The translations under genes were made by a program, and so were the position numbers. DNA of 64,000 nt from Escherichia phage dw-ec: the sequence record OL739525.1; one strand, written 5' to 3'. The first letter of the stretch is position 1; each line of letters begins with the position of its first letter. The notes beneath the pieces were generated by a model. It was not told where the DNA came from. It ran no database searches and saw nothing but the letters and a program-made list of their open reading frames with translations. Positions 21,595-52,318 of the stretch are shown piece after piece.

Positions 21595-21840
21595 TCTAGC
21601 CTCCTAAACGCGTCTCTGACGCACTTTTTATATATAAGATGATAAATCACCTTACCTAGTAAGTGAACTTGCTCTACGAGCCTCTTATGAAGCTTATGTT
21701 ATAGGCTATACTATTGCTACCTGTTTAAGCAAGGTTTTTGCACACAGAAAATAATTTTTAATTAAACTCTTGACTTTTGTGTTCGAAGTATGCTACCCTA
21801 GAAATCTATTAACGAGCGCAGCGAGTTAAGGTTTTAGGTT

Positions 21841-22040
21841 GTTGATGTAGTACTCTGTACTCCGTACTAGATTAATAATTATTAAATATTAATAATAAAT
21901 AATTATTAGATCTAACAAACAGGTACAGTGTATCAGAACTGGTACGTACAGATCAACTTCTATCAATTAAAAAAATAAAATAATAAATTATTATAAATAA
22001 TACTTGATCTATAGATCAGTATGAAGTACAGTACGTAACA
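21841..22040. repeat. AT-rich divergent control region with clustered GTAC-core repeats and short palindromes
   Basis: Eight GTAC cores in about 200 bp; palindromes TAGATCTA and TGATCTATAGATCA; long AT tracts; no ORFs. Confidence 0.5.
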
Positions 22041-22064: not shown

Positions 22065-22250
22065 ATGATTAGTGAGAATCCGTGCAAATGGCATCATGTG
22101 CCTATTAAAGATTGTATGTCTTGTAATCCACGTTCTATTTATAACATTGCATCTTATGATGATGACAATGTGTTAGACGATGATGAAGGCTGGGAGGATT
22201 TGGATTGGACTGGTTATGAAACCAAAAAGGATAAAATTATTCCTAGTTGA
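22065..22250 (+). CDS. hypothetical Cys/His-containing small protein (61 aa)
   Basis: GGAGG RBS; first rightward gene. Confidence 0.45.
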   Translation: MISENPCKWHHVPIKDCMSCNPRSIYNIASYDDDNVLDDDEGWEDLDWTGYETKKDKIIPS

Positions 22251-22287
22251 CTTAAGATATCCTTCGTGCTAAACTAGAAGTGAGGAG

Positions 22288-22539
22288 ATGCCGATCACTC
22301 CCCATTTGGGGTTCGAAGGATATATGCAAAATAGCTTTTATTTTAGGTGCCGTGCTTGTAATAGGCATTTGACAAACCACTCCAGACGTGATAAAAATGG
22401 AGTCATCAAGGAATCAGACCTCTGTTCTATTTGCACAGGTTTGGCTTTTGATGATAGTCCCGAAAGGGTTTATCAGCATCAATGTATAACAGACGTTCTC
22501 GTGTCAAACTTGGTAGAGGACGAACAACTAACAGATTAG
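22288..22539 (+). CDS. hypothetical zinc-finger-like protein (83 aa)
   Basis: GAGGAG RBS; CRACN...CSIC Cys pairs. Confidence 0.45.
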   Translation: MPITPHLGFEGYMQNSFYFRCRACNRHLTNHSRRDKNGVIKESDLCSICTGLAFDDSPERVYQHQCITDVLVSNLVEDEQLTD

Positions 22540-22547
22540 GAGGAACA

Positions 22548-22796
22548 ATGTCTCTATTAGAAAAACACGTGTTTGAAGATGGTAACGGCAATGCAGTTTT
22601 TCTTTTCCATCCAGAAAAATACACATCTGAAAACAATGGTACAACTTCTATTGTAATCACTAAAGATGTTAAAGTTATTGATTTCTTGGCTCTGATGCGA
22701 GAGATGGATCTTGAAATTAATACTTTTAACGCAGAAGCTTTGGTTGTTGCTCTTCTGGAAAAGAAAGATAGTGAAGAAGTAGCAGAATATGCTTAA
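22548..22796 (+). CDS. hypothetical protein (about 82 aa)
   Basis: Track ORF 22482..22796 trimmed to ATG after AGGAGG RBS. Confidence 0.45.
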   Translation: MSLLEKHVFEDGNGNAVFLFHPEKYTSENNGTTSIVITKDVKVIDFLALMREMDLEINTFNAEALVVALLEKKDSEEVAEYA

Positions 22797-22803
22797 ATAA
22801 CTA

Positions 22804-22833
22804 TTGACAAACGTATCCTTCATATGTTAGGAT
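22804..22833 (+). promoter_or_regulatory. sigma70-like promoter P1 of tRNA array (CTATTGACAA ... TGtTAGGAT) with 10-bp inverted repeat
   Basis: TTGACA, 18-bp spacer, extended -10; AACGTATCCT / AGGATACGTT inverted repeat spans spacer and -10. Confidence 0.5.
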
Positions 22834-23042
22834 ACGTTCATCAAGTGTGGTAACAGGGTCGTTGACTTTTGTTAAGAGGGGCTTGCACTGCGGTAGTGTT
22901 AGAGACTACTTCTTCAGAGGTTAGCTACCAAAGAGGAAAAGGAATAGTCTCGGCTCAAGAACTTTTACGCTGAAAGTTGGGCTTGGTCTTAGAGAATGTA
23001 GCGGTTCTCTACAATCGTCAGCGTCTCTGTTACCACATTTAT

Positions 23043-23117
23043 GGCCCTGTAGCTCAATGGGAGAGCTGTCGGCTCATAACCGATAGGTAGCTGGATCGAA
23101 ACCAGCCAGGGCCACCA
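23043..23117 (+). tRNA. tRNA with CAT anticodon (Met or lysidine-type Ile2)
   Basis: Cloverleaf folds by hand: GGCCCTG/CAGGGCC acceptor, anticodon loop CTCATAA, CCA encoded. Confidence 0.75.
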
Positions 23118-23119
23118 AC

Positions 23120-23194
23120 GTCTTTATGGTGTAATGGATAGCACAGGAGTCTTCTAAACTCTTAGTCAAGGTTCGATTCCTTGTAAAGACACCA
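23120..23194 (+). tRNA. tRNA-Arg (TCT)
   Basis: 7-bp acceptor, anticodon loop CTTCTAA, T-arm CAAGG-TTCGATT-CCTTG, CCA encoded. Confidence 0.8.
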
Positions 23195-23390
23195 GAACAT
23201 TTTAACATGAATTAGCTCAAGTGATTTGAACCCACTACTGATCATGGTGGCAGAGAATGAGGCAAGTATGTCAGACATTATAAACAAAGGCCACGGTTAT
23301 ATTAGAAGACATAAATGCTCGAAGAGCACCGTTCGTTGAGAACGGGGGTTGGTGGAGTCACCATTCATGGTAAAATGTTTTAAAAAACTA

Positions 23391-23420
23391 TTGACAACTA
23401 ACATTATTTTATGTTAGATT
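23391..23420 (+). promoter_or_regulatory. sigma70-like promoter P2 inside tRNA array (CTATTGACAA ... TGtTAGATT)
   Basis: TTGACA, 18-bp spacer, extended -10; CTAACAT/ATGTTAG inverted repeat. Confidence 0.5.
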
Positions 23421-23428
23421 ATAAGTAT

Positions 23429-23519
23429 GGAAGGGCAAATCGATGTGGCGACGAAAACGGTCTTGAAAACCGCCGAGCTTGAAAGAGCCTTGGGAGTTCG
23501 ACTCTCCCTCCTTCCGCCA
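23429..23519 (+). tRNA. tRNA-Ser (TGA), class II
   Basis: Anticodon loop CTTGAAA, long variable arm, T-arm GGGAG-TTCGACT-CTCCC, CCA encoded. Confidence 0.8.
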
Positions 23520-23524
23520 GATTA

Positions 23525-23610
23525 GGTAGATTGGTGAAATGGTAGCCACAACAGTTTGCTAAACTGTAGTCGGAAACGGCGTGTAGGTTCGAGTCCTACA
23601 TCTACCGCCA
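23525..23610 (+). tRNA. tRNA-Ser (GCT), class II
   Basis: GGTAGAT/ATCTACC acceptor, anticodon loop TTGCTAA, long variable arm, CCA encoded. Confidence 0.8.
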
Positions 23611-23740
23611 AGTTCTTTTTAATATAGCTTACTTTAATAGAGTAAACTTTCGGCAGATGGCCTCCACCATCTTACCGATAACTCATAGTTAGTGGTGTGA
23701 ACACTGGCTATTTTAAAAAGAATTTAAATATTAGTATTTA

Positions 23741-23828
23741 GGTGAGTTAATTCCGTAGGGGTAGCGGGGCAGACTGTAAATCTGTTATCATTGCGATTCG
23801 GGTGGTTCGACTCCATCACTCACCACCA
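23741..23828 (+). tRNA. tRNA-Tyr (GTA), class II
   Basis: GGTGAGT/ACTCACC acceptor, anticodon loop CTGTAAA, long variable arm, CCA encoded. Confidence 0.8.
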
Positions 23829-23834
23829 AATTAA

Positions 23835-23920
23835 GATGAGTTGGCTGAATGGTTTAAGCGGCGGACTGTTAATCCGTGTTCGAAAGAACGATATAGGTTC
23901 AAATCCTATACTCATCGCCA
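23835..23920 (+). tRNA. class II tRNA with apparent GTT (Asn-type) anticodon; isotype uncertain
   Basis: Good acceptor and T-arm, 15-nt variable arm, anticodon stem GCGGA/TCCGT with loop CTGTTAA; class II architecture with an Asn anticodon is non-canonical. Confidence 0.55.
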
Positions 23921-23927
23921 GAATTAT

Positions 23928-24004
23928 GGACTTGTAGAGTTAAGGTAAACCCCCAGTCGCCAAGAGGCTTCTGGAATTGCAGGTATCGAATCCTGCCGAG
24001 TCCC
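23928..24004 (+). pseudogene. degenerate tRNA-like element
   Basis: Acceptor pairing GGACTTG/CGAGTCC and T-arm-like GCAGG-TATCGAAT-CCTGC (8-nt loop), but no canonical anticodon arm could be folded. Confidence 0.35.
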
Positions 24005-24010
24005 AGTTTT

Positions 24011-24085
24011 GCTCCTATAGTATAATGGCTATTACAACGGTTTTGTAATCCGTGGATCTCTGTTCGATTCAGAGTGGGAGCACCA
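24011..24085 (+). tRNA. tRNA-Thr (TGT)
   Basis: GCTCCTA/TGGGAGC acceptor, anticodon loop TTTGTAA (one non-WC pair closing the stem), CCA encoded. Confidence 0.7.
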
Positions 24086-24358
24086 ACATAACATTAAGAG
24101 CACTGTGATTGATCGTCGTATCCTGTGCACAAGGTCTGCTCGAAAGACAGTGTTCTTAGTATTGTGTTGATCACACAAAGAGTTACCTGAAACTTGACCG
24201 GAGTAGGGTTGGATGGGGCAAAAGAAGAAGCGGCTCTCCCATCGACAGCAACGAAGAATAATATTTGACTTTGGTTTTGTATTATTTTAAGTTAGCTTAC
24301 CGAACGTAGGGCTAGTCACCCAATGGGATACTCGTCACTGTCCCACTCAATAAAACTA

Positions 24359-24388
24359 TTGACAACCAATAGTAAAATGTAGTATAGT
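24359..24388 (+). promoter_or_regulatory. sigma70-like promoter P3 inside tRNA array (CTATTGACAA-18-TATAGT)
   Basis: Consensus hexamers about 10 nt upstream of tRNA-Gly. Confidence 0.5.
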
Positions 24389-24399
24389 AAAGATGTAGG

Positions 24400-24473
24400 G
24401 CGTTCTTGGTGTAGCGGTAGCATTCCGTCCTTCCAAGTCGGCGGCACGAGTTCGATCCTCGTAGAACGCTCCA
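24400..24473 (+). tRNA. tRNA-Gly (TCC)
   Basis: Anticodon loop CTTCCAA, T-arm ACGAG-TTCGATC-CTCGT, CCA encoded. Confidence 0.75.
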
Positions 24474-24571
24474 AATTATTTAATAAAGGGTTGCCAGAAA
24501 ACTTTCTCTTTTACTCATGGTTTTCTCCTTCTCTCACACCTCTTCTGGTTGCCCTTCATTAAATGATTTAT

Positions 24572-24647
24572 TGGTTTGTAGTGTAGTCCGGTAGCACACG
24601 ACACTTTGACTGTCGTAGGTTTGGTTCAAATCCAGACAGACCAGCCA
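24572..24647 (+). tRNA. tRNA-Gln (TTG)
   Basis: TGGTTTG/CAGACCA acceptor, anticodon stem CGACA/TGTCG with loop CTTTGAC, CCA encoded. Confidence 0.75.
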
Positions 24648-24652
24648 TATAA

Positions 24653-24729
24653 CGGAATTTAGCTCAGTTTGGTAGAGCATACGCTTTGGGAGCGTAGGGT
24701 CGCAGGTTCGAATCCTGCAATTCCGACCA
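24653..24729 (+). tRNA. tRNA-Pro (TGG)
   Basis: CGGAATT/AATTCCG acceptor, anticodon loop TTTGGGA, T-arm GCAGG-TTCGAAT-CCTGC, CCA encoded. Confidence 0.85.
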
Positions 24730-24735
24730 ATCAAA

Positions 24736-24809
24736 TGTTTCGTAGTTCAATGGTAGAACCCACGACTGATAATCGTGAGACACAAGTTCGATTCTTGTCG
24801 AAACAACCA
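24736..24809 (+). tRNA. tRNA-Ile (GAT)
   Basis: TGTTTCG/CGAAACA acceptor, anticodon stem CACGA/TCGTG with loop CTGATAA, CCA encoded. Confidence 0.8.
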
Positions 24810-24811
24810 GT

Positions 24812-24881
24812 TTCCCGTTAGACTTACAGGATAAGAGTTCCACAACTTATTGTGATGCTGGTTCGAATCCAGCACGGGATA
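24812..24881 (+). pseudogene. tRNA-like element with aberrant anticodon arm
   Basis: Canonical T-arm GCTGG-TTCGAAT-CCAGC and acceptor (1-72 mismatch), but anticodon region folds only as a 4-bp stem with 6-nt loop ACTTAT; 70 nt, no CCA. Confidence 0.4.
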
Positions 24882-24887
24882 CATAAT

Positions 24888-24966
24888 AGCGGGATAGAGG
24901 AGTCTGGTCGTCCTCGCCAGTTTCATATGCTGGAGATCATCGGTTCAAATCCGATTCCCGCCTCCA
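24888..24966 (+). tRNA. tRNA-Met (CAT), second CAT-anticodon tRNA
   Basis: Anticodon stem CCAGT/GCTGG with loop TTCATAT, T-arm ATCGG-TTCAAAT-CCGAT, CCA encoded; A1-C72 mismatch at top of acceptor. Confidence 0.65.
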
Positions 24967-25081
24967 AATATCGCTTGCCAGCGGTATCTTTGAAGACCTT
25001 GCCTGGTTCCTTCTAAGATGGAGGGGTGCGACTCCTTAACGCACAATTATAATAAAGCATTTCAAATTAACAGTATTTATT

Positions 25082-25104
25082 AGCCTCCTTATTGGAGGCT
25101 TTTT
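25082..25104 (+). terminator. intrinsic terminator closing the tRNA array
   Basis: AGCCTCC-loop-GGAGGCT hairpin followed by TTTTT. Confidence 0.6.
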
Positions 25105-25123
25105 GCTATCTATTGAATAAAAC

Positions 25124-25152
25124 TTGACTTATTATTTTTTATATGTTAAGAT
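25124..25152 (+). promoter_or_regulatory. sigma70-like promoter (TTGACT-17-TGtTAAGAT)
   Basis: Hexamers upstream of the 25174 gene; shares TATGTTA motif with array promoters. Confidence 0.45.
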
Positions 25153-25173: not shown

Positions 25174-25470
25174 ATGCCTAAACTAAAACGTGGTCGTGGA
25201 AGACCAACAGCCGAAATGCAACAGATCTACGCAATGGATGCGGCGCAAGCAAGTGTAAAAGAATTATTTGCAGAGCATTATTTAGAAGCTATGCGATATA
25301 TTGTTGAACTTGTTAATGATAAGGATGCAGCAAAACCTCTCCGCTTCCAAGCAGCTAAAGCTATTAAAGAGCAAGTAGAAGAATGGTTAGAAGAACATTA
25401 TGAAGCTATGGAAGAAGAAACCCCTGCCGTGCAGAATACAGATGACGTTCCTAAAAAGATCGTAATCTAA
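25174..25470 (+). CDS. hypothetical DNA-binding protein (KRGRGRP motif); small-terminase candidate
   Basis: N-terminal basic AT-hook-like KRGRGRPT; AGGAGG RBS; upstream of terminase region. Confidence 0.35.
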   Translation: MPKLKRGRGRPTAEMQQIYAMDAAQASVKELFAEHYLEAMRYIVELVNDKDAAKPLRFQAAKAIKEQVEEWLEEHYEAMEEETPAVQNTDDVPKKIVI

Positions 25471-26469: not shown

Positions 26470-28545
26470 GTGGCAAAGAAAAAGGCAGCAGGTAGTTTAG
26501 CTGGAGTAGATATTGAAGTAAAGGCTCAACCAGGTAAACAGACTCTTGCAATGGATTTAATGCCAGAAGTTATGATTTATGGTGGTGCCGCTGGATGTGT
26601 TTCTGCTGAAACGGAATATCTTACAAAAGATGGTTGGAGGCAGATTAGTGAATATTCGGGAGAGGATATTTACCAATACAATCCTAAGAATAAGCGTTTA
26701 GAATTGGTAACACCTTATTTTGTAGAATACGATTTAAATGGAGATAACCTATACAGAATAACAAATGGTGTAGGATTGTTCCAAGAACTTAGTATGGAAC
26801 ACCGTTTTGTATTCTATAAGAAAAAGAAATCAAAGAAACATTTCGAGATTCTTGTAGGAGATCTTATTGCATTACAGCAAATAGGAAAACCCCTTCAAGG
26901 TTATGTAGAAAATCCATTCGGTAAACGTGTTCCTTTTAACATACCTGGTAAAAAGAGCACTTACTTAAAAATACACGAGGTTATTTCAACAGATGATAAG
27001 AAATATTGTTTTGAGACTCCAAGCAGTTATATTGTCTTTAGACGTGGCGATCACTGCTTCGTTACTGGGAATAGCGGCAAGTCTCGTCTGCTATTGCTGA
27101 AAGCTTTAAAATACGCCTACAAAGACCCTTTGTTTGGTGGAATACTTTTCCGTAAGAACACCACTGCTCACCGTAAACCAGGTGGTCTGTTTACAGAAGC
27201 AAAACGTTTGTATCTTCCTTTACAACCGCACGTAAAAGAAAGTACAATGGATATCATTTTTGAAGCCACTGGTGGTGGAACCCTCAAATTTGACCATTTG
27301 GAAAATGATAACGTAACAGCAGAAACAAACCATCAGGGTACACAGTATTCAATGGTAGGTTTTGACGAGTTAACCCACTTCACACAATATGAAATGCTCT
27401 ATCTTCTGGGACGTATGCGTTCAGAGTCAGAAACAAGTTTCATGTTGTGCACATGTAACCCTGACGCAGATAGTTGGGTTTTGAATTGGGTGTTACCTTA
27501 TCTTGATGAGGGTGGTTATCCTAGAGAAGATATGTGTGGTAAACAAAAATATTTCATCATTGTTAACGATGAACCTGTTTTTGCTGACACACCTGAAGAA
27601 CTGAAAGAAAAATATCCAGAAAACTGTTTCATGGAAAACCCTAATACAGGGGAGACAGTTGTTATTGAACCACAAACTTTCGTATTTATTGGTGGGACAA
27701 TATTTGATAACCCAGAACTCATTAGGCTTAACCCTAATTACTTAGCACAGCTTAAATCACAAACAGCGATTAAAAGAGCACAGCTTCTGGACGGTTGTTG
27801 GTTTGCACGTATTCAGAAAGAATCTTTCTTTCAACGTGAATGGTTACATAAAATATCTTATAAAGATGTTCCTAACAATCTTAAACTAATGCGAGCATGG
27901 GATAAAGCTGTTTCAGTTCCTACAGAAACTTACCGTTATCCAGACTATACAACATCTGTCAAAATGGGTAAAGACCAAGATGGTAATATCTACATCTTTG
28001 GCGACTATGATTATGATGCTGTGGATGAGAAAAGTAAAATTTTTGGAAGGTTTCGAAGACTACCTGGGGAAAGGGATAACCTGATTCTAAATCAATGTAA
28101 GATCGATGGACCAGAAGTTACAGTAGTTCTTCCTAAAGACCCATCTGGTGCTGGGACAATAGAATATACAGAGTCTGCAAAGAAACTCATTCTGGAAGGT
28201 TTTGTTGTTAAACCAGATGCTATGCCAGGTAACAAGAAAAAGCTTCAGCGTTTTATGCCTTTTAGTAGTGCGTGTCAAAACGGTTTTGTTTATATTGTTG
28301 AAGATTCTTTCCCTAATGTGGAAACTTTAACCCACTTTTATAAAGAATTGGAATCTTTCAATGGTGAAAGATCTACAGCCACTATTAAAGATGACATTCC
28401 CGATGCTGCTGCCTCTTGTTTTAATACTCTGTCAAAAGAGAATACTTTCAAGGCAGTAGCTATCCCTACAACAACAAATGCTCCTACAGGATACAGTAGA
28501 ATGAACAGCGGATTTCACCAACCGTATAGTGTCCGTAAAAGATAA
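26470..28545 (+). CDS. terminase large subunit, interrupted by an in-frame mini-intein
   Basis: GTG start; Walker A split as GGAAG / insert / SGKS; 691 aa; located before portal. Confidence 0.85.
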   Translation: MAKKKAAGSLAGVDIEVKAQPGKQTLAMDLMPEVMIYGGAAGCVSAETEYLTKDGWRQISEYSGEDIYQYNPKNKRLELVTPYFVEYDLNGDNLYRITNGVGLFQELSMEHRFVFYKKKKSKKHFEILVGDLIALQQIGKPLQGYVENPFGKRVPFNIPGKKSTYLKIHEVISTDDKKYCFETPSSYIVFRRGDHCFVTGNSGKSRLLLLKALKYAYKDPLFGGILFRKNTTAHRKPGGLFTEAKRLYLPLQPHVKESTMDIIFEATGGGTLKFDHLENDNVTAETNHQGTQYSMVGFDELTHFTQYEMLYLLGRMRSESETSFMLCTCNPDADSWVLNWVLPYLDEGGYPREDMCGKQKYFIIVNDEPVFADTPEELKEKYPENCFMENPNTGETVVIEPQTFVFIGGTIFDNPELIRLNPNYLAQLKSQTAIKRAQLLDGCWFARIQKESFFQREWLHKISYKDVPNNLKLMRAWDKAVSVPTETYRYPDYTTSVKMGKDQDGNIYIFGDYDYDAVDEKSKIFGRFRRLPGERDNLILNQCKIDGPEVTVVLPKDPSGAGTIEYTESAKKLILEGFVVKPDAMPGNKKKLQRFMPFSSACQNGFVYIVEDSFPNVETLTHFYKELESFNGERSTATIKDDIPDAAASCFNTLSKENTFKAVAIPTTTNAPTGYSRMNSGFHQPYSVRKR
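26596..27072 (+). mobile_element. mini-intein (Hint domain, about 159 aa) inserted in the terminase Walker A P-loop
   Basis: Insert starts with Cys (CVSAETEYLTKDG, block A-like), has SMEH block B-like motif, ends ...FVTGN followed by Ser; excision restores GGAAGSGKS (GxxxxGKS). Confidence 0.55.
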
Positions 28546-28548
28546 TTG

Positions 28549-28577
28549 TTGACAAAAGTCACTTTAAAGTGTATTAT
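28549..28577 (+). promoter_or_regulatory. sigma70-like promoter (TTGACA-17-TATTAT)
   Basis: Consensus hexamers between terminase and portal genes. Confidence 0.5.
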
Positions 28578-30212: not shown

Positions 30213-30242
30213 AAATATTTAATATTTTTTAATTTTTCTATT

Positions 30243-30271
30243 GACAAAACAACAAATATCCTGTAGACTAA
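30243..30271 (+). promoter_or_regulatory. sigma70-like promoter (CTATTGACAA-17-TAGACT)
   Basis: Same extended -35 motif as tRNA array promoters. Confidence 0.45.
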
Positions 30272-30305
30272 GATTTATGGGATATCTGTTTTTAAGAGGT
30301 TTCAA

Positions 30306-40686: not shown

Positions 40687-40716
40687 TTGACACGAAGTTT
40701 CTATATGTGTTACAAT
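40687..40716 (+). promoter_or_regulatory. sigma70-like promoter (TTGACA-18-TGtTACAAT)
   Basis: Consensus hexamers with extended -10 upstream of baseplate genes. Confidence 0.5.
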
Positions 40717-44275: not shown

Positions 44276-44748
44276 TGGCAGATTTAACTACGATCAAAAT
44301 TTCTGATCTTACACAAACAACCTCTGTGTCTGATACAGATTTCTTTGTAACAGATCAGGCTGGAATAACAAAGAAAACTTCTTTGAAAGTGCTGTTGAGT
44401 GGTGCAGGGGTAACTAGAAACCGTCTGAATGCACGGGGAACAGTAACTAGCACCTTGGCATTAGATATTAGTTCAGCAGAATATTTTTCTGCAACTTTAT
44501 CTTCTGCAACGTGCACAATTAGTTTTACTAATATTCCAGTAGCAACAAATGCAGTTTTAAACTTTACTTTAGCTTTGCGTCAAGGAAGTGGTGCAAATAA
44601 AGTCGTATGGCCTTCTTCTGTAAAATGGAGTTTTGGTCGCCCCCCAGTTTTGAGTTATCGTCAAGGTGCAACAGACACTTTTGAGTTTATCAGTTATGAT
44701 AATGGAGCAACTTGGACAGGTAGCTTAGTTTTAGCAGGAGTTATTTAA
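44275..44748 (+). CDS. hypothetical tail fiber-associated protein
   Basis: 157 aa; ORF track; coupled ATGA junctions. Confidence 0.35.
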   Translation: MADLTTIKISDLTQTTSVSDTDFFVTDQAGITKKTSLKVLLSGAGVTRNRLNARGTVTSTLALDISSAEYFSATLSSATCTISFTNIPVATNAVLNFTLALRQGSGANKVVWPSSVKWSFGRPPVLSYRQGATDTFEFISYDNGATWTGSLVLAGVI

Positions 44749-47624
44749 TGTCAAGAGTTAAGCACAATATTGACAACACGTTTCAGTTGATTGAAGGGTT
44801 GGTTCAGTTTTTGGAAAGAAATACTGGTCTTACCATAGATCCTACGGTTCAGCACTACATTATCAACCCACAAAACGTATTGGCGAACAACAGACACTTT
44901 ATTAACTGGACAGCGCAGGAAGGGCAACCAAACGGTGACGCTACTACCGAAGGTCAATCTGTGCTTATCACTGGTTTTGCTTATGCATATTTGGCTACAG
45001 GAGATAAAAAATATCTTGAATCTGCCGAGAAGTATTGGCAAGCCTATATAGATCACTTCTTCGGGGGCCAACCTATTCCTGATCCTCCAGCTAAGTATCG
45101 TCCCAACTGGATCATCAATGGTAAAGAACCACGTTTAGCACACTACCCTCTCACAGATGATGGGTATCCTACGCACGGTGGGTTCAAAGGTAGCATGATG
45201 ACTTGGATTAACGGAAGGACTGTTATTCCTAAAGGTGCGCCACATTGGGGAGAATACTTAGATAAAGCTTGGTTTGCTTTCAATGGTAATCTTGGTTGGA
45301 ACTCTGTTAACGCAACAGTGTATGCAACTAACCCAGATGGTTCAACCAACTGGAAAGAATATGGAGATCAGTGGGACGTTGAATGGATTATAGATCGTCT
45401 AGGACGTAAAGTTGATTGGGATGGTAACATTTTATCCACTGGGCATAGCTTTGCAGAATATGGAACAGTGCAACTTAAAAACGCTTCTGTGAACGGAGAC
45501 TATAAATTCAACTACGCTACATGCAATCCTGTAGAACACGGTGGATATCTGCTTAAGCGTAATGAGATGTGGCATAACCGTCCTGTAAACGTTCCGGTAG
45601 AGTTAGGTTATCAAGACAATGCTTCCGATGCTGAAACGTGGTGGTGTGATGCAAACTACTTAATGTATCAGATCACAGGAGAGAGAAAATACTGGCTTTG
45701 CTGGCAATCTTCTTTATTGTTGTGTCAAGACTACTCAAACATCGATATGTTTGATAAATTCTTCCGTAGATCTACGACAGCAATAATTCCTTTTACAGAT
45801 GGTATCTCGTATGATTACTCATACCCATCTACAGCAATACCTAAATATTCTCGTGACGAGTTAGGATACACAGTAATTCGCCAAGATGTTGCAGCACAAA
45901 CAACTCTAGAACAACAGGCAGTTTGGTTCAGAGTGGATCAGAATTCAAAACTGCGTATTGAGTTTCAAGGCGTAGATGATGCAGGGGAAGGTGTTCTTTT
46001 CCGTCCAGAGTTAGAATTAAGCAAGACTAAGAGTGAAACAGACACAGTGACATATCGTTGTGGCTTACCTCTTGGTGCAGCTAATATGACTAAGATGGAT
46101 ATACCTTTATCCAGTTTTATGCGCACTGAACCTCCTGGAGGTGGTGTATATATTATTGCCGAACCTAGAATCATTGTTGACTGGGGAAGCAATACTGTGA
46201 TACAATATAAATATGCAACTGGTATTGCTGGGACAAATAGTGATCAGATAGTTTCTGCTAATATGGATTCAGATGGTGGTTTTACTATTGGGTTTTGGTT
46301 AACACCAACTAAAACAACCAATTTAAAATCTATTACGTATCGTTCATACGCAGATGATTTTAACATCACTATTACGGATTCCGCAGGTTGGAGATGGTGG
46401 GCCATGTTAGAAAAAACAAATTCTGCATGGGTTACTAAAGCTTTAAGTCCTGCTGATTTCAAATTAAGTACTTGGCAACCTAATCACAATGACACAGAGA
46501 CAAAACCTTCGTCAATAAACCTGACTGCTGTTGATCAGATGAACATTGCATTGGATTCTGAACCTGCAAATGGCTTGACAGGGGCAATCGACTTTTATTG
46601 CGTTAACGATATCCCATCTTTGTATTCTTCAGCCGCTGGTGATGATTACACAATGTATTTCAGGGTTACAGTTTCATCTGAAAATCCTTATACAGCAAAA
46701 CTTGGAGATTGTACAATACTGGACTACAAACTTGACAGTTTGAATTATACTCCAGGAATCATCCCATTTTCCAATATTAGTGATCCTAATACAGCATTAT
46801 ATGACGGTTGGCGTGGTATTCCTTACCCAGGTTATCAATACCCATCCTTATATTGTTTTAAAGGGAGAGATATTGACTGGGTTCGTATGAACAACAGTAT
46901 AGACTTTTTATATGATTCACAAATGTGGTTTTATAATAAGTTTGCCCCTGTAATGCCTGGGCCAATGGCACAAGCTTATGTTTGGGATCGTTGGGATGCT
47001 CATAAATATGGAAACAAAAATGAGTTCACAATGTATCATTGGAACGATAAAGCTTGGGATGGTTATGAAGCAAGAGCATTCTTCTGTGCGTGTCATACGG
47101 TATACGAACTAAAGCGACGAGGAGCCGAAGTTCCTGAAAAACTTTTAACAGTTTGTAAAAACTGGATCAACTACCTGAAGTGGTTCCAAGATAACAACGA
47201 AGGAAGAACACCAACAATATTTTATCCCAACGGAGAAGTGGCTGCGCCTGTAGATGACTTTACAAGTCACATGTCTGCGCTCTTTATGGCGGGATGTGCT
47301 ATAATGGGGATGGCTGGATATGATTCAGAAATTCCTAACATTAAAATAGTAGCAGATCGCTGTTTTGAACTTATTCAGGAAAATTATATTGTTCTTGGTC
47401 CTAATCACGTTATGAATGGTTGTTGGAGTGCTGCTCCTAGACCAGACAGTGATAACGGAGTCTTCTTTGGCTTCCACGCTGGAGAGTTGTTACGTGGTTT
47501 TGGGTTGTATGCTTTATACAAAAAACTTAATCCCCAAAATGCATTACCTGTTTTGGATTCGAGCAATATTCCTGCACTTACTGTTTTGACAATGGCAAAC
47601 ATTAGTGTGGACGTTACCGAGTAA
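44748..47624 (+). CDS. large tailspike / tail fiber protein
   Basis: 958 aa, Trp/Tyr/Asn-rich; within tail module. Confidence 0.45.
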   Translation: MSRVKHNIDNTFQLIEGLVQFLERNTGLTIDPTVQHYIINPQNVLANNRHFINWTAQEGQPNGDATTEGQSVLITGFAYAYLATGDKKYLESAEKYWQAYIDHFFGGQPIPDPPAKYRPNWIINGKEPRLAHYPLTDDGYPTHGGFKGSMMTWINGRTVIPKGAPHWGEYLDKAWFAFNGNLGWNSVNATVYATNPDGSTNWKEYGDQWDVEWIIDRLGRKVDWDGNILSTGHSFAEYGTVQLKNASVNGDYKFNYATCNPVEHGGYLLKRNEMWHNRPVNVPVELGYQDNASDAETWWCDANYLMYQITGERKYWLCWQSSLLLCQDYSNIDMFDKFFRRSTTAIIPFTDGISYDYSYPSTAIPKYSRDELGYTVIRQDVAAQTTLEQQAVWFRVDQNSKLRIEFQGVDDAGEGVLFRPELELSKTKSETDTVTYRCGLPLGAANMTKMDIPLSSFMRTEPPGGGVYIIAEPRIIVDWGSNTVIQYKYATGIAGTNSDQIVSANMDSDGGFTIGFWLTPTKTTNLKSITYRSYADDFNITITDSAGWRWWAMLEKTNSAWVTKALSPADFKLSTWQPNHNDTETKPSSINLTAVDQMNIALDSEPANGLTGAIDFYCVNDIPSLYSSAAGDDYTMYFRVTVSSENPYTAKLGDCTILDYKLDSLNYTPGIIPFSNISDPNTALYDGWRGIPYPGYQYPSLYCFKGRDIDWVRMNNSIDFLYDSQMWFYNKFAPVMPGPMAQAYVWDRWDAHKYGNKNEFTMYHWNDKAWDGYEARAFFCACHTVYELKRRGAEVPEKLLTVCKNWINYLKWFQDNNEGRTPTIFYPNGEVAAPVDDFTSHMSALFMAGCAIMGMAGYDSEIPNIKIVADRCFELIQENYIVLGPNHVMNGCWSAAPRPDSDNGVFFGFHAGELLRGFGLYALYKKLNPQNALPVLDSSNIPALTVLTMANISVDVTE

Positions 47625-47632
47625 GGGGTAAA

Positions 47633-49786
47633 ATGAAACAAGCTATATTTACTGTCACGCGAGACAAGAGAGTAAATGCGAGTTCATTTAACTACACGAC
47701 TGTTGACGGAACAGCAGTCGCTGGTAGAGATTATATTGCAAAATCGGGAACACTTGTGTTCCCTGATGATGCTGATTCTGCTACTATTGTGGTTGAAGTA
47801 TTTGAACGACCAAAGAACTCAATAGATCTTAACTTCTCCCTCCAAGTTTCAGGGATTAGTCAAAATAACATGATGGTTGAAACAACCATCAATTGTATTA
47901 TAACTACTATCCAAGAAAATACTACTCCAATAACTTGGACTACAAAAGACGTTAAAATGTTCTCTCCTATGTATTGGACAATAGACTCTCAAGCAACGGA
48001 AAGTTGTTCTATTGTATCTCATGGAGACTCTTTTACTGCAAGATTTGTAAACAGAACAACAGCAGGTTTGGCAGGGGTTATCTGGAGCACAGTTGACAAA
48101 TATGATCACAAAGGTGTTGGGTATTTACCACACACAGATTTAAGTTCAGATAAACTTTGGTTTAAAATGGAAATTAGTCAAAACATGCCAGGTTTTAAAG
48201 AAGAACCTTTGGTGCCGACTTTGACTGTAACTCTCCTGGATAAAAGTGTTCATTATGTCAGTTTAGGATTCTACGCTTCGGATATTTCAGAAGATGGTAA
48301 AACAGCTACAATCAAGTTAGATTTTGGTAATATCTTTTCTGGCCCTAATAATGATATTCCTTTGGATATGAGTGCTGTAGATAATATTTTCTTCTCTTTG
48401 ATTACAGCAAGGTATGAAGAAATAGAAGAGGTTGTACCTATTGACAGTCAAGAGGCTTGGTTTACTTTCACTCTTCTTGAACCTACCTCTGGTTATAGTA
48501 TGATGAAAGTCAGCAACCTTGTCCAGCCTGAACATGATATTCGCATGTGCACATCTTATGATGATATGTATAACCTGACTCCAGAAAGAGTTATTTATAA
48601 TACATATGCGCTAGGTTATCGTGGAATGATTAACCATTACAACGGAATGTCTCACTATTATGAGTTCTCATGGAACGGAACATCTTGGGCTTTAAATAGA
48701 TCTGTTTTCCTGAATCCGGCTACAGAAGCTTGGCTAAATAGTTTCCATTCTATAGCAAACGAGAAGGGCTACACGATAATGAACTCTTTAAGTTTTGAAT
48801 TGATGAGCACAGTTTGTCCTGTAGAATGGGTCCAGCATGATTGGAACGATGCTCTTGCAGCAACAGGGTATGAACCTCCTAGTTATGTGTTGTCTCCAAC
48901 TATTGACGAAGGTATGGAATATTTGCAAAATGTTATTAATAAAATAGCATCTATTTCGCAAGCTAATAATATTCCAGTTGTCATTCAAATTGGTGAGCCT
49001 TGGTGGTGGTATAATACAGCAAGTAAAATGCCTTGCATATATGATTACACTACCAAACTGGCATTCAACACAGAAACAGGTTTATTTGCACAAGATGCAG
49101 GAACAATAGATAATTATAAAACAGGAACGCCGTTTGACGAATACTATGCATTTTTGTCTCGTAAACTAGGATTAAGAGTTACAAAGTTTGCAACAGATAC
49201 TAGAGCAACTTACCCAGGAGCCAAGGTAACATTGCTTCCGTTCTTGCCATCAATTATCGGCAACGGTTTGATGGAGAAAGTTAACTTCCCGTCTGATTAC
49301 TACATTCCTGAAGCTTTTGATTTTTACTGTTCAGAGTGTTATGACTGGCTTCTGGAAGGTAAGATGATGAAAGCATTTGATGCAATTACCATACCACATG
49401 AAAAATTAGGTTTTGAATATTCTGATATTCACTACCTTTCAGGTTTTGTTCCAGATGCTACTCTTGCACCTTTGTATGGCTTTGATCCTAAATCAAACTA
49501 CCGCACATATCTTTGGAAGATGATTATAGGTAACATAGTGTTGAACGCCAATAAGTTTGACGGACTTACACAATATATATGGGCCTATCCTCAAATAATG
49601 CATGATTCTATCACGGTAGTTAATTCTCAATCCCAAGTTTTCTATATGGGTAACGTGCCTTTGAACGTTTATTTACAGGATATCACTCTTAAACAGGTAA
49701 ATGTTGAGATTGCCACCATAAGTGGAATTACATTAGCCACTAAATCTGGAGAAGATTTAGTAACAACACAAAAATTTTATATATAG
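47633..49786 (+). CDS. tail fiber / tailspike protein
   Basis: 717 aa; ORF track. Confidence 0.4.
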   Translation: MKQAIFTVTRDKRVNASSFNYTTVDGTAVAGRDYIAKSGTLVFPDDADSATIVVEVFERPKNSIDLNFSLQVSGISQNNMMVETTINCIITTIQENTTPITWTTKDVKMFSPMYWTIDSQATESCSIVSHGDSFTARFVNRTTAGLAGVIWSTVDKYDHKGVGYLPHTDLSSDKLWFKMEISQNMPGFKEEPLVPTLTVTLLDKSVHYVSLGFYASDISEDGKTATIKLDFGNIFSGPNNDIPLDMSAVDNIFFSLITARYEEIEEVVPIDSQEAWFTFTLLEPTSGYSMMKVSNLVQPEHDIRMCTSYDDMYNLTPERVIYNTYALGYRGMINHYNGMSHYYEFSWNGTSWALNRSVFLNPATEAWLNSFHSIANEKGYTIMNSLSFELMSTVCPVEWVQHDWNDALAATGYEPPSYVLSPTIDEGMEYLQNVINKIASISQANNIPVVIQIGEPWWWYNTASKMPCIYDYTTKLAFNTETGLFAQDAGTIDNYKTGTPFDEYYAFLSRKLGLRVTKFATDTRATYPGAKVTLLPFLPSIIGNGLMEKVNFPSDYYIPEAFDFYCSECYDWLLEGKMMKAFDAITIPHEKLGFEYSDIHYLSGFVPDATLAPLYGFDPKSNYRTYLWKMIIGNIVLNANKFDGLTQYIWAYPQIMHDSITVVNSQSQVFYMGNVPLNVYLQDITLKQVNVEIATISGITLATKSGEDLVTTQKFYI

Positions 49787-49794
49787 GAGTAAAA

Positions 49795-51693
49795 ATGTCA
49801 ACTACAATTACTAATTTACCCGAAACATCAAAAGTTAATGGTTCAGATTACCTGGTTTTAGATCAACCTGATAAAACTGTTAAAAGCACAGTTTCCAACT
49901 TTCTTACTGACACTGGGGTGGTTTTAGCCACCCAGTTGAAAGATACAAATGGAGCAGATTTAATACAATCCTCAAATGGTAATACTGTTCAGGAAGAGTT
50001 GAATAACAATCTTCTTAATGATCGTGAACAGTGGCGTCGTAGTCTTGCCGAGGCTGGGTTAACTCTTGTTGATGGTAGTTTTGAAGAAGGGGCTACAGTG
50101 GGCAGTGTAACTGATGCTGTTTGGCACATTTCTGTTGGACAGTGTTATACATGGCATGGCGCTTTCCCTAAAACTGTTCCTGCTGACTCAACCCCTGAAG
50201 CATCTGGTGGTGTTGGTATTGGTGCATGGGTTAGTGTTGGAGATGCATCTTTGAGAAGCAATCTTGCATCTGATGATGGCGCGGGTCTGGTCGGATTTAA
50301 GTCGCCTCTGGCCAACTCTATTAAGCGAGCACTACATGATAAAAATAATGACCTGGTGTCAGTCAAGGACTTTGGAGTTGTTGGCGACGGTGTGACCGAC
50401 GATACCGCCGCATTTCAGGCAGCAATAGATTCGAAAAAGAGTTTATACATACCGGATGGTATTTATCTTATAAGCTCTACTTTAATCATAACTGCCACTG
50501 ATAGTTTATGTATTGTTGGTAATAGTTTTGGACATGTTAATGACCAAACAACAGGTTCAGTAATTAAGTTTACTGGGTTAGCGTCACCCGCCATTCGGGT
50601 TCAAGGTGGTGCGATAGGAGCTAAGATTTCTGGACTTTTTCTGGATATCCAGGATTCATCATCTGATGGCTTTGATTTCGGTGGGGCTTGGTATTTAAAA
50701 CTTCAAGATTGCGTTGTCAGAAACGCTCGATATGGGGTCTATTTACATTACGATAGCCCAGACTATTTTTCCGGAGTAGCTGAGCTAACTTCGTGCTATT
50801 TCGCTAAATGCGCAAATGGCGTAAAAACGTCAAAAGTAGATATCAACGTAGTTAAAGTTGATAATTGCACCTTCTTTGACGGAGTTAACGGTGTTCTTAT
50901 TGGTGACTCAGGTGCTGCAAGTAGTGTGCGAAATTTCATAGTCAGAGACTCTCTATTCGAAGCGAACACAGGTTATGACGTAGGCGTCGTCGCTGGGGGT
51001 GCGCAGCAGTTACTGGTAGATGGTAACTATTTCGAAGAGAATACCGCTTCCTCTTTAGCGAGGGTATATGTTGCAGATGATGTTCGCTCTCCGCGTTCTT
51101 CCTCGGTTTCAATAACTAACAACACGTTTAGTAAAGATACGACAGGCGACCTTGTTTTCTTGTCCGGTGTTTCCGGCGTTCTTGTTAAACAAAACTGGTC
51201 TGCGTTCGGAGGTATAGGTTTTGTACGGGCGATTAATATTGACAATTATGAGATAGATAGATGCTCCACAGTATCAGGTGCGGCTCCATGTAATGTTGTC
51301 ATAGACAACATCTTACAAGTACCGGACACTTCTGTTAATAAGATTTCTATTAACAAGGCCCAAGAATACTCGTTTATTGGGACTACTGTCGTAAAAAGGT
51401 CTAGTGCATGTACACGGGCTATGATTCAATTTAATGGAATTTCTGGGTCGTTAGTGTATGCAGACGGAGCAACTGTATCTAAAACCGGGACCGGTAAATA
51501 TACCATCAACCTATCTAATGCTTTACCCTCTTCCGCATACGCTGTTTCGTGTAGTGTCGGCAATACTACAGGCGGAGAGAAATTAGCAATTAATGTTGTA
51601 AGTACATCCGCTGGTTCTTTTAACCTTGAAGTTTTCGACCTTTCAGGGGCGTATCAGGATTCTGGATACATATCTGCCGCAGTTATTATGTAA
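49795..51693 (+). CDS. tailspike with pectate-lyase-like beta-helix (polysaccharide depolymerase candidate)
   Basis: DFGVVGDGVTDDTAAFQAAID motif typical of pectate lyase superfamily N-terminus; 632 aa. Confidence 0.55.
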   Translation: MSTTITNLPETSKVNGSDYLVLDQPDKTVKSTVSNFLTDTGVVLATQLKDTNGADLIQSSNGNTVQEELNNNLLNDREQWRRSLAEAGLTLVDGSFEEGATVGSVTDAVWHISVGQCYTWHGAFPKTVPADSTPEASGGVGIGAWVSVGDASLRSNLASDDGAGLVGFKSPLANSIKRALHDKNNDLVSVKDFGVVGDGVTDDTAAFQAAIDSKKSLYIPDGIYLISSTLIITATDSLCIVGNSFGHVNDQTTGSVIKFTGLASPAIRVQGGAIGAKISGLFLDIQDSSSDGFDFGGAWYLKLQDCVVRNARYGVYLHYDSPDYFSGVAELTSCYFAKCANGVKTSKVDINVVKVDNCTFFDGVNGVLIGDSGAASSVRNFIVRDSLFEANTGYDVGVVAGGAQQLLVDGNYFEENTASSLARVYVADDVRSPRSSSVSITNNTFSKDTTGDLVFLSGVSGVLVKQNWSAFGGIGFVRAINIDNYEIDRCSTVSGAAPCNVVIDNILQVPDTSVNKISINKAQEYSFIGTTVVKRSSACTRAMIQFNGISGSLVYADGATVSKTGTGKYTINLSNALPSSAYAVSCSVGNTTGGEKLAINVVSTSAGSFNLEVFDLSGAYQDSGYISAAVIM

Positions 51694-51726
51694 ATAATGC
51701 TCACTCCAGATATCCATCATGTAAAA

Positions 51727-51750
51727 AACCCCTCTTCGGAGGGGTTTCCT
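51727..51750 (+). terminator. intrinsic terminator
   Basis: CCCCTC-TTCG-GAGGGG hairpin followed by TTT. Confidence 0.5.
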
Positions 51751-51770
51751 AGAAAAACAATGAGGTTTAT

Positions 51771-52079
51771 ATGAACGAAATGTTCTCACAAGGTGGTAAG
51801 GGTTCAACTGGAATCTTAACCAACAAACAAGCAGTAGCCCGTCACTTTGGGGTTAAGCAATCTGAGGTTGTTTACTTCTCAGTTGGTGTGGATTTGGGTG
51901 GGTATAAGGTTATCTATGATAAGGAGACGCAAAGGGCGTATTCCCTACCTGCTGATATTGCCCCAGGTACTACTGCCATTAGTCTTAGTGCTGCTGTACT
52001 TGTGCATTCAGCGGGTTCTGTAGACCTTGGGGAATTAGCTGTATCTCGTGATTTAAAAAGTAATGAGAATGCACTATGA
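51771..52079 (+). CDS. hypothetical protein (102 aa)
   Basis: ORF track. Confidence 0.4.
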   Translation: MNEMFSQGGKGSTGILTNKQAVARHFGVKQSEVVYFSVGVDLGGYKVIYDKETQRAYSLPADIAPGTTAISLSAAVLVHSAGSVDLGELAVSRDLKSNENAL

Positions 52080-52318
52080 GAAAATTTTTAATAGGTATGT
52101 TCTGTACATATCCTGATAATAAAGTCAGTTCTACGAAAGTCTGGAACGCTGTAGGCATGTCGGTTATGACAGGCATGTTTATCTTTTTAGGAATAGAAAA
52201 AGAAATTCCTGAATGGATGGGTTGGGCTTTTGTTTTCATGATAACTCCTTCTCGCCTCATGAAAAATCTTATTGATTTACGCTGGGGCAGATCACAATCT
52301 ACCAAAGAGGATGACTAA
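52076..52318 (+). CDS. small two-TM membrane protein (holin-like topology)
   Basis: Two hydrophobic helices and charged C-terminus RWGRSQSTKEDD; 80 aa. Confidence 0.35.
   Translation: MRKFLIGMFCTYPDNKVSSTKVWNAVGMSVMTGMFIFLGIEKEIPEWMGWAFVFMITPSRLMKNLIDLRWGRSQSTKEDD

Follow-up and report, generated by a model that had tools for sequence, protein, structure and literature searches.

Putative sigma-70 promoters of the tRNA array in a phAPEC8-like coliphage and a conserved palindrome within one of them

The tRNA array of the phage considered here, a phAPEC8-like coliphage of the genus Phapecoctavirus, contains several short, near-identical sequences that resemble promoters. Are these sites used by the host RNA polymerase, and what might be the role of the long palindrome that lies within the first of them? 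The window, which is the whole stretch of 64,000 nucleotides that was analysed, was compared with related phage genomes. All promoters and the terminator described below are on the plus strand.

Occurrence and layout of the promoter sequences

The motif AACTATTGACAA had been described in the initial annotation as common to three promoters of the tRNA array (designated P1, P2 and P3). Direct reading and a pattern search confirm three exact copies at 22799-22810, 23386-23397 and 24354-24365, with TTGACA starting at 22804, 23391 and 24359; 0.01 copies are expected, and none of 100 shuffles reaches this count. The shorter CTATTGACAA is present in four copies (0.23 expected), the fourth at 30238-30247. 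When one mismatch is allowed, the excess is only weak (14 versus 7.7 expected). All copies of both sequences are intergenic and sense-oriented, and neither the 12-mer nor the 10-mer recurs in the remaining 88 kb of anhysbys, a near-identical genome; every copy therefore stands in a promoter context. The near-identity of P1-P3 is confined to 12-13 nt and their flanks are unrelated, which rules out segmental duplication as the origin of the common 12-mer. Gene conversion is unnecessary to account for the AACTA prefix, since AAAACTA is already present in P2 of phi92 and in the phi92 gp110 promoter. A metagenome scan with the 15-mer CAAGTGTGGTAACAG returned chance matches, and BLAST of the loci among the matches listed revealed no true relative; one related contig only (L002) was found in IMG/VR.

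The promoters share a layout composed of an A/T tract, TTGACA, a 17-18 bp spacer, often TRTGn, and then TAnnnT. P1 has an upstream UP-like A/T-rich tract (gcttaaataacta, 22791-22803), whose A-tract is retained in relatives, and a core promoter at 22804-22833 (TTGACA 22804-22809, 18-bp spacer, TG 22825-22826, -10 hexamer TAGGAT 22828-22833) with a predicted start at about 22840. P2 (23382-23420) comprises an A-tract at 23382-23387, TTGACA at 23391-23396, an 18-bp spacer, TG at 23412-23413 and TAGATT at 23415-23420, and its predicted start (about 23427-23429) is at the point where a decayed tRNA-Ser(UGA) (23429-23515) begins. P3 (24350-24388) likewise has an A-tract, TTGACA (24359-24364) and an 18-bp spacer, followed by TATAGT (24383-24388) without TG; its start is predicted at about 24393-24395 and tRNA-Gly begins at 24400. 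From the end of the -10 hexamer to the 5' end of the next structured RNA or tRNA is 9-12 nt for P1-P3 in both Phapecoctavirus lineages. The array is closed by an intrinsic terminator at 25082-25105 (AGCCTCC-ttatt-GGAGGCT plus TTTTT). Beyond it, P4 (25124-25152; TTGACT 25124-25129, 17-bp spacer, TG 25144-25145, TAAGAT 25147-25152) is upstream of a 98-amino-acid ORF (25174-25470).

Further promoters lie outside the array. The one upstream of the portal gene (28549-28577; TTGACA, 17-bp spacer, TATTAT) had been annotated as being without the CTA prefix, and TTGTTGACAA is indeed found at 28545-28554. A similar promoter had been placed at 30243; it is present before the ORF at 30306, but its TTGACA starts 2 nt away at 30241 (feature at 30238-30285; -35 at 30241-30246, 17-bp spacer, -10 hexamer TAGACT at 30264-30269). 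This promoter is flanked by an inverted repeat (ATATCC 30256-30261 and GGATAT 30280-30285). Another promoter follows the tape-measure terminator (40687-40716; TTGACA, 18-bp spacer, TGtTACAAT). Transcripts are predicted to start at about 25159 from P4 and at about 28584, 30276 and 40723 from these three promoters.

The -35 hexamer matches the consensus at 6/6 positions in P1, P2, P3 and the 28549, 30241 and 40687 promoters, and at 5/6 in P4. The -10 hexamers match at 4-5/6 positions, always including A2 and T6, and the spacers are 17 or 18 bp long. As complete -35/spacer/-10 arrangements, the motif copies score 10-11 of 12, the best in a scan of 20-32 kb. Sites that score 10 points or more reach 1.34/kb in intergenic DNA in the sense orientation, as against 0.34-0.48/kb in coding or antisense DNA, a 3-4-fold difference in density. 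However, a generic consensus scan gives 30 sites versus 31.0 in shuffled sequence, so that consensus matching by itself proves nothing. Upstream of the -35 hexamer, positions -47 to -41 are 85-100% A/T in 14 promoters of the window, and P1-P3 have an UP-like proximal A-tract at about -39 to -45 that is kept in their orthologues.

A TG one base before the -10 hexamer is present in P1, P2, P4 and the 40687 promoter and is retained in their orthologues, and it is absent from P3 and the 28549 and 30241 promoters. The extended -10 strings reported for the window occur as described (TGtTAGGAT 22825-22833, TGtTAGATT 23412-23420 and TGtTAAGAT 25144-25152). The annotation of these sites as promoters is well backed by their anatomy, position and conservation across lineages, but some of its details do not hold, among them a proposed hairpin at the transcript start (see below). 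CTA is not an extension of the -35 motif; it is lineage-specific, and relatives carry gta, gtg, tag, tac or ctc in its place. Nor is ATGTTAG a separate element: it consists of the known extended -10 motif, TRTGn, running into the beginning of the -10 hexamer.

Conservation and predicted transcription of the array

Cross-lineage comparison, rather than consensus matching, validates promoters of this sort. The positions of P1-P3 are kept in the lineage of phiWec179/188, L002 and PsgM04F (77-90% identical over the region), and P2, P3, P4 and the 28549, 30241 and 40687 promoters are conserved in position in phi92, which belongs to a different genus. In the relatives of P1-P3 (phiWec lineage and phi92) TTGACA is invariant, the TG and -10 hexamer are retained and the spacers vary, a pattern that constitutes a phylogenetic footprint. 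P1 of phiWec179/188, IMG/VR L002 and PsgM04F has a 17 bp spacer and the -10 hexamer TAAGAT. In P2, TTGACA, the 18-bp spacer length and TGtTAGATT are invariant among the window, phiWec and phi92 lineages, with 5-6 of the 18 spacer positions differing. At the place of P3, before tRNA-Gly, phi92 has TTGACA-18-TGtTAGAGT. The counterparts of P4 are TTGACA-17-TGaTACGAT in the phiWec lineage and TTTACA...TGtTATCCT in phi92, and those of the 28549 promoter are TTGACA-17-TACAAT in phiWec179 and TTGACA...TAAAGT in phi92. From aatatcctgTAGACT to the ribosome-binding site, the 30241 promoter hardly differs among the window, phiWec179 and phi92, and its flanking repeat is therefore without covariation. The terminator-plus-TTGACA arrangement at 40687 is also found in phi92, and phiWec179 has TTGACA-N17-TATCAT at the same place. 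A hairpin equivalent to the array terminator is present in phi92 as well. Across genera the -10 hexamer also keeps bases that deviate from the consensus (TAGATT), a hint that something besides sigma-70 binding constrains it.

The anatomy of the sites, their non-random occurrence, their sense and intergenic placement and the conservation of their positions with invariant hexamers make it very likely that these are promoters for host RNA polymerase with sigma-70, which would transcribe the tRNA array in three nested units. From these observations we infer sigma-70 holoenzyme binding, start sites, timing and strength. The A/T tract (about -39 to -47) would be touched by the C-terminal domains of the alpha subunits and the perfect TTGACA by sigma region 4. 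Sigma region 3 would recognise the TG of TRTGn, making up for a long 18-bp spacer and for weak -10 hexamers (TAGGAT, TAGATT and TAAGAT), and melting of TAnnnT would fall to sigma region 2. The units into which P1, P2 and P3 divide the array (22.8-25.1 kb) are predicted to be nested, all ending at the single terminator at 25082-25105, and since they run to one terminator the distal tRNAs would receive additive transcription. RNA would start 2-5 nt ahead of a stable structure, namely RNA1 for P1, the relic of tRNA-Ser(UGA) for P2 and tRNA-Gly for P3, so that leaders would be minimal. The discriminators are AT-rich, unlike those of host stable-RNA promoters, and from this feature of their sequence the promoters probably avoid stringent control. 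Other features also speak against the sigma-70 assignment: three -10 hexamers match at just 4/6 positions, the 18-bp spacer is suboptimal, and perfect -35 promoters precede the portal and head genes, which is unexpected under a simple early/late scheme. No TSS, RNA-seq or expression data for this phage group were found in the literature searched. The promoter set is real but ordinary, expected biology that adds no new principle of transcription; its sole oddity is the conserved palindrome inside P1. What the set provides is a usable transcription map of the tRNA region (nested units from three promoters, a single terminator and stable RNAs with almost no leader) for a genus whose phages are widely isolated for therapeutic use.

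Relation to known promoters and cassettes

Extended -10 promoters (TGn or TRTGn) are reportedly known from E. coli and Bacillus. P1, P2, P4 and the 40687 promoter resemble this class in their TG, in preceding bases that fit TRTG (TATGT, TGTGT) and in pairing the motif with a weak -10 hexamer or a long spacer. A good -35 hexamer is often missing from classic extended -10 promoters, whereas here the -35 is perfect; the TG therefore probably makes up for the 18-bp spacer and for a -10 hexamer that matches at 4/6 positions. UP elements are A/T-rich stretches between -38 and -59 through which the alpha C-terminal domain increases promoter activity, and their proximal subsite is said to have the consensus AAAAAARNR at -46 to -38. 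P1-P3 and their orthologues have an A-tract directly upstream of the -35 hexamer, but the tract is shifted by 1-2 nt from the consensus and is without a distal subsite. The tRNA cluster of T4 also encodes stable RNAs, species 1 and 2. The window resembles T4 in that its tRNA array would be co-transcribed by host polymerase with structured, stable RNAs other than tRNAs that are released by processing. The two differ in that their sequences show no similarity and that long closing stems mark the spacer RNAs of the window; furthermore, we know of no promoters between the tRNA genes of T4.

A close precedent for the whole set is rV5, for which 33 sigma-70-like promoters were predicted, including 11 with an extended -10 and one named PtRNA (Kropinski et al. 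2013, PMC3606486, Table S4). Both phages are large myoviruses without an RNA polymerase of their own, and both have genome-wide TTGACA-N15-18-TAnnnT sites, about a third of them with an extended -10 and often with AAAA-rich sequence upstream, as well as a site before the tRNAs (PtRNA in rV5; PMC3606486). The AACTA prefix, the 18-bp spacer class and a palindrome embedded in a promoter are unreported for rV5 (PMC3606486). In addition, rV5 belongs to another subfamily (Vequintavirinae), and its promoters were not compared across lineages.

Two other explanations of the repeated sequence were considered. PeSLs are promoter-terminator cassettes of T4-type phages that have been proposed as junctions for the shuffling of cassettes (PMC2839356, PMC4122927). 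Like PeSLs, the sites in the window are early-type sigma-70 promoters that recur where the genome is plastic; tRNAs, HNH genes and an XRE gene have been gained or lost there among relatives. P4 and the 40687 promoter each follow a terminator hairpin and form terminator-promoter composites, and one inserted cassette abuts P3: in ZCKP1, 702 bp encoding XRE/HigA, with a terminator at the end and 11-nt GTCCCACTCAA repeats on either side, directly precede the P3 motif. This ZCKP1 repeat, however, is upstream of the common 12-mer and not inside it, and other indels of the array map away from promoters. PeSLs are longer, near-identical composites with a terminator-like stem-loop just upstream of the promoter. 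P1-P3 have no such stem-loop, the inverted repeat of P1 is inside the promoter, and the 12-13 nt of identity is too short for homologous exchange. It is thus unlikely that the sequences serve mainly as recombination junctions for gene and tRNA cassettes with promoter activity as a secondary property. The other explanation holds that the sites are chance matches to the consensus, or that they require a phage-encoded factor (a middle or late class) and not plain sigma-70. In its favour, generic matches are equally frequent in shuffled sequence, some sites are located before late structural genes, and the genome has elsewhere a different, much larger early class, whose spacer is 16 bp long and whose start region, GTATCACATAGGGCGG, is conserved. 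The count of the exact 12-mer and the hexamers that remain invariant across genera while spacers vary argue otherwise. By established promoter rules a perfect -35 with TGn requires no activator. Chance or a phage factor is therefore very improbable as the explanation.

The palindrome within P1 and the structured RNA1

The P1 palindrome has perfect 10 bp core arms, AACGTATCCT (22810-22819) and AGGATACGTT (22829-22838), separated by a 9-nt gap, and extended arms of 16 nt (22804-22819 and 22829-22844; 88%). It spans the core promoter exactly (22804-22844), covering the -10 hexamer and the start site, and is conserved. In phage B15 (L129) the arms pair perfectly over all 16 bp, and those of the phiWec lineage differ by two compensatory pair changes plus one G.T. 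Inverted repeats had been annotated in both P1 and P2, and both are present (in P2, CTAACAT 23398-23404 and ATGTTAG 23411-23417), but that of P1 alone beats chance: its fold has a z-score of -4.88 with 0/200 shuffles as stable, and the values in three haplotypes are -4.9, -7.7 and -6.1. The P2 repeat is marginal (z -1.84, 8/200 shuffles) and the short repeat of P3 is not significant (z -0.91, 40/200). The P2 arms are broken in B15, PsgM04F and phi92 and the P3 arms in B15; both were rejected as functional elements, and the proposal of a functional site at P2 falls on significance and on conservation alike. The suggestion that P1 forms a hairpin at the transcript start fails because the left arm (-35 to -20) is upstream of the predicted start.

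The palindrome was also rejected as an intrinsic terminator on either strand, as the plus strand is without a U-tract, that of the minus strand is interrupted and the terminator scan made no call. A Frpo- or N4-type single-strand promoter was dismissed since the geometry would put the -35 and -10 on opposite strands of one stem. RTATCCT was discarded as an operator half-site common to three promoters, as its excess is weak (24 versus 15) and its register relative to the -35 hexamer differs.

The palindrome may tentatively be read as an operator, in which a dimeric phage or host protein on both arms would repress (or activate) P1 at a certain stage, so that RNA1, tRNA-Met and tRNA-Arg would be regulated separately from the remaining array. 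Its coincidence with the core promoter, its stability far above that of shuffled sequence in three haplotypes and the joint change of both arms between lineages are consistent with this. The two mismatches of the window give G.U on the minus strand only and the G.T of phiWec gives a wobble on the plus strand only; the variants favour neither RNA strand, which fits symmetry at the DNA level. Against an operator, the half-site pair has no second copy in the roughly 150-kb genome, no regulator or DNA-binding domain, including helix-turn-helix, was found in the five small ORFs neighbouring P1 (Pfam, PHROGs), although a protein encoded farther away or by the host may be the ligand, a typical dimer operator has shorter arms than the 10-16 bp (with a 9-bp gap) seen here, and a nucleic-acid hairpin would give compensatory change equally. 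It is also possible, although short of probable, that the palindrome acts as an RNA hairpin in read-through transcripts from the ORFs at 22065-22796, either protecting a 3' end or serving in RNase III/E processing where the mRNA meets the stable-RNA array, its overlap with P1 being a matter of economy. There is no terminator between the stop codon (22794-22796) and P1, so that read-through RNA must include the hairpin. Its predicted stability is -17 to -25 kcal/mol, it adjoins the 22-bp closing stem of RNA1 (from 22843), and pairing is retained in the phiWec variant through G.U. On the other hand, it has no downstream U-tract and is hence no terminator, and the mismatches of the window (C.A and A.C) are non-wobble on the plus strand. 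That the 41-bp palindrome with paired changes in two lineages is a dedicated switch, whether operator or RNA processing hairpin, is rather doubtful. If it were, the switch would control RNA1 (22843-23040), tRNA-Met and tRNA-Arg independently of the other parts of the array.

The palindrome is one lead from this region; the covarying spacer RNAs that these promoters would express are the more interesting one. RNA1, the predicted first product of P1, is about 200 nt long, ends 2 nt before tRNA-Met (23043) and is previously undescribed; neither it nor the other spacer RNAs of the array match an Rfam family. Its MFE has a z-score of -5.6 and 99.7% of cells are paired, and 10 pairs are changed on both sides, compared to 0-1 in slid controls.

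Repeated motif and promoter anatomy

The sequence AACTATTGACAA occurs three times (22799, 23386, and 24354) where 0.01 copies are expected, and CTATTGACAA occurs four times against an expectation of 0.23, with the fourth copy at 30238. All four copies lie in non-coding DNA in the sense orientation. The motif family described in the initial annotation is non-random, and every string named there is present in the window; one coordinate, 30243, is corrected to 30241. Phage anhysbys, whose genome is near-identical, has no copy in its remaining 88 kb, so the four represent the complete set. Sequence identity among the tRNA-array promoters P1, P2, and P3 ends after 12-13 nt, which indicates a shared motif and rules out a duplicated segment.

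In every case the motif supplies the upstream half of a complete predicted promoter of the sigma-70 type. In P1, P2, and P3, a TTGACA -35 hexamer (starting at 22804, 23391, and 24359, respectively) is followed by an 18-bp spacer and the -10 hexamers TAGGAT, TAGATT, and TATAGT; the -10 is preceded by TG in P1 and P2 and lacks it in P3. P4 (TTGACT at 25124) has a 17-bp spacer, TG, and TAAGAT. Three further promoters, named by the start of their TTGACA, are 28549 (17-bp spacer, no TG, TATTAT), 30241 (17-bp spacer, no TG, TAGACT), and 40687 (18-bp spacer, TG, TACAAT). The CTA prefix that had been assigned to the -35 motif is not conserved, its place being taken in relatives by gta, gtg, tag, tac, or ctc. 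The recurring feature upstream of the -35 is an A-tract spanning roughly -39 to -45 (in 14 window promoters, A/T occupies 85-100% of positions -47 to -41), which we take to resemble a proximal UP-element subsite. The reported ATGTTAG element is present, but it is not a separate element; it consists of the known extended -10 TRTGn and the TA of the -10. TATGT or TGTGT directly precedes the -10 hexamer in P1, P2, P4, the 40687 promoter, and their orthologues.

An imperfect tandem repeat (TAGTAAAATGTAG / TAGTAAAGATGTAG) occupies the spacer, -10, and start region of P3 (24370-24398) and is a repeat_region in the RefSeq annotation of anhysbys and tuntematon. An inverted repeat, ATATCC / GGATAT (30256-30285), flanks the -10 and start of the 30241 promoter; this promoter block is near-identical down to the ribosome-binding site in the window, phiWec179, and phi92. 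A weaker promoter-like site (TTGACT, 17-bp spacer, TGcTAAACT) lies within 22247-22323, where a perfect 10-bp inverted repeat (ATATCCTTCG at 22257-22266 and CGAAGGATAT at 22314-22323) covers the spacer of the site and the start of the next ORF.

Evidence for promoter function and related systems

A generic consensus scan gives no excess of sites (30 versus 31.0 in shuffled sequence), so other kinds of evidence are needed to make the case for promoters. Sense intergenic DNA holds 1.34 high-scoring matches per kb, 3-4 times the density of coding or antisense DNA (0.34-0.48/kb). The -10 of P1 ends 10 nt before the structured RNA1, that of P2 9 nt before a tRNA-Ser(UGA) relic, and that of P3 12 nt before tRNA-Gly, and the sister lineage keeps the same distances. 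The positions of P1-P3 are retained in phiWec179/188, an IMG/VR contig, and PsgM04F, whose arrays are 77-90% identical, while the P2, P3, P4, 28549, 30241, and 40687 promoters occupy the same positions in phi92 (Justusliebigvirus). Across lineages TTGACA is invariant and the TG and -10 are kept as the spacer sequence drifts; in P2, all three lineages share TTGACA, TGtTAGATT, and a spacer length of 18 bp, while 5-6 of the 18 spacer bases differ. Placement, distance to product, and conservation within the genus and across genera thus back the promoter reading of the repeated motif, and the assignment of these sites as sigma-70-type promoters of the ordinary kind is well supported by sequence comparison. 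The literature searched yielded no start-site or transcriptome data on this phage group.

Over the 4 kb around the array promoters, the window shares 99.4% identity with ECO340P1 and anhysbys, two Escherichia phages of the genus Phapecoctavirus (Stephanstirmvirinae, the phAPEC8 group). In an annotated relative, minus-strand genes up to ~21.6 kb are devoted to DNA metabolism, and plus-strand genes from ~22 kb run from small ORFs through the tRNA array to lysis, terminase, portal, head, and tail genes. The two blocks are separated by a very AT-rich divergent intergenic region (21750-22010) with nested palindromes (e.g., 21873-21908), a repeat_region in the annotation of a RefSeq relative and a candidate for either a replication origin or a divergent early control region. 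ARAGORN identifies 10 tRNAs (23043-24966) and Rfam adds a weak eleventh. The tRNA array has no internal terminator, the only one being at 25082-25105, so the three units starting at P1-P3 are nested and share one 3' end.

The genome paper on rV5 predicted 33 sigma-70-like promoters across this related genome, 11 with an extended -10 and one called PtRNA (PMC3606486). The window set is the Phapecoctavirus counterpart of these promoters. The tRNA-array promoters (18-bp spacer, TRTGn) are a subclass distinct from the larger early class of anhysbys, in which ~18 near-identical promoters, one ahead of each small ORF, lie at 44,400-53,500 of that genome, outside the window. In each, TTGACA lies after an A-tract and is separated by a 16-bp spacer from TAAnaT, beyond which comes the conserved initial transcribed sequence GTATCACATAGGGCGG. 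For promoter modules that are repeated in plastic genome regions, the closest existing idea is the PeSL cassette of T4-type phages. P1-P3 depart from it in two features, as they lack an upstream stem-loop and have no more than 12-13 nt in common. A PeSL-like hint comes from Klebsiella phage ZCKP1, in which a 702-bp cassette (2252-2953 of that genome) sits as an insertion immediately ahead of the P3 motif, at the equivalent of window position 24350/24351. The cassette encodes an XRE/HigA-like antitoxin, ends in a terminator, and is bounded by 11-nt direct repeats (GTCCCACTCAA).

Inverted repeats at the array promoters

The inverted repeat noted earlier at P1 is real, with a perfect 10-bp core and 16-nt arms of 88% complementarity (perfect in B15) and fold z-scores of -4.9 in the window, -7.7 in B15, and -6.1 in phiWec179. 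Between two lineages, one A-T pair becomes G-C, one C-G pair becomes T-A (turning the -10 TAGGAT into TAAGAT), and one A-T pair becomes G.T. The 150-kb genome holds ~10 perfect short-range palindromes of 10 bp, so such repeats are not unusual and the weight of the P1 repeat lies in its location and paired changes. The similar repeat claimed for P2 is present but not significant (z -1.8) and is broken in relatives, as is a short repeat at P3 (z -0.9, also not significant).

The P1 repeat had been proposed to be either a transcript-start hairpin or an operator. Its left arm spans -35 to -20 and would be absent from RNA initiated at P1, so the transcript-start idea fails. The palindrome could instead form a hairpin in read-through RNA from the upstream ORFs, which would include it since there is no terminator in between. 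An operator role is just as plausible, although the palindrome is unique in the genome and no DNA-binding protein is recognized adjacent to P1.

Structured spacer RNAs and tRNA relics

The P1 palindrome merits follow-up, and the inter-tRNA spacers, which are conserved structured RNAs that match no Rfam family, do so even more. RNA1 (22843-23040), ~200 nt long, lies between the P1 start and tRNA-Met and has a closing stem of 22 bp that encloses five hairpins. It has 66 predicted pairs (99.7% of cells paired) and its covariation is strong, as 10 pairs have changed on both sides versus 0-1 in slid controls. RNA2 (23195-23380), RNA3 (23610-23735), and RNA5 (24473-24569) are also conserved, and their long closing stems (17-27 nt per arm) could be RNase III sites. 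RNA2 has one compensatory pair and RNA3 three; RNA5 is invariant across lineages. RNA5 carries a pyrimidine-rich loop (UCUCCUUCUCUC, CACCUCUUCU) similar to an anti-Shine-Dalgarno sequence.

Immediately downstream of P2, the decayed tRNA-Ser(UGA) relic (23429-23515) has no ARAGORN call and a below-threshold Rfam tRNA-Sec match of 35.7 bits; the gene is intact in the IMG/VR contig (L002) and in two further sequences (L004 and L131). A weak tRNA-like sequence at 23741-23825 (39 bits) is a decayed tRNA annotated as pseudo-Tyr in relatives. Neither ARAGORN nor Rfam calls two other elements, at 23926-24008 (z -3.2) and 24811-24886 (z -2.8), that are cloverleaf-like and have both an acceptor stem and a T-arm. 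The former is 98.9% identical between lineages, with flanks at 77-90%.
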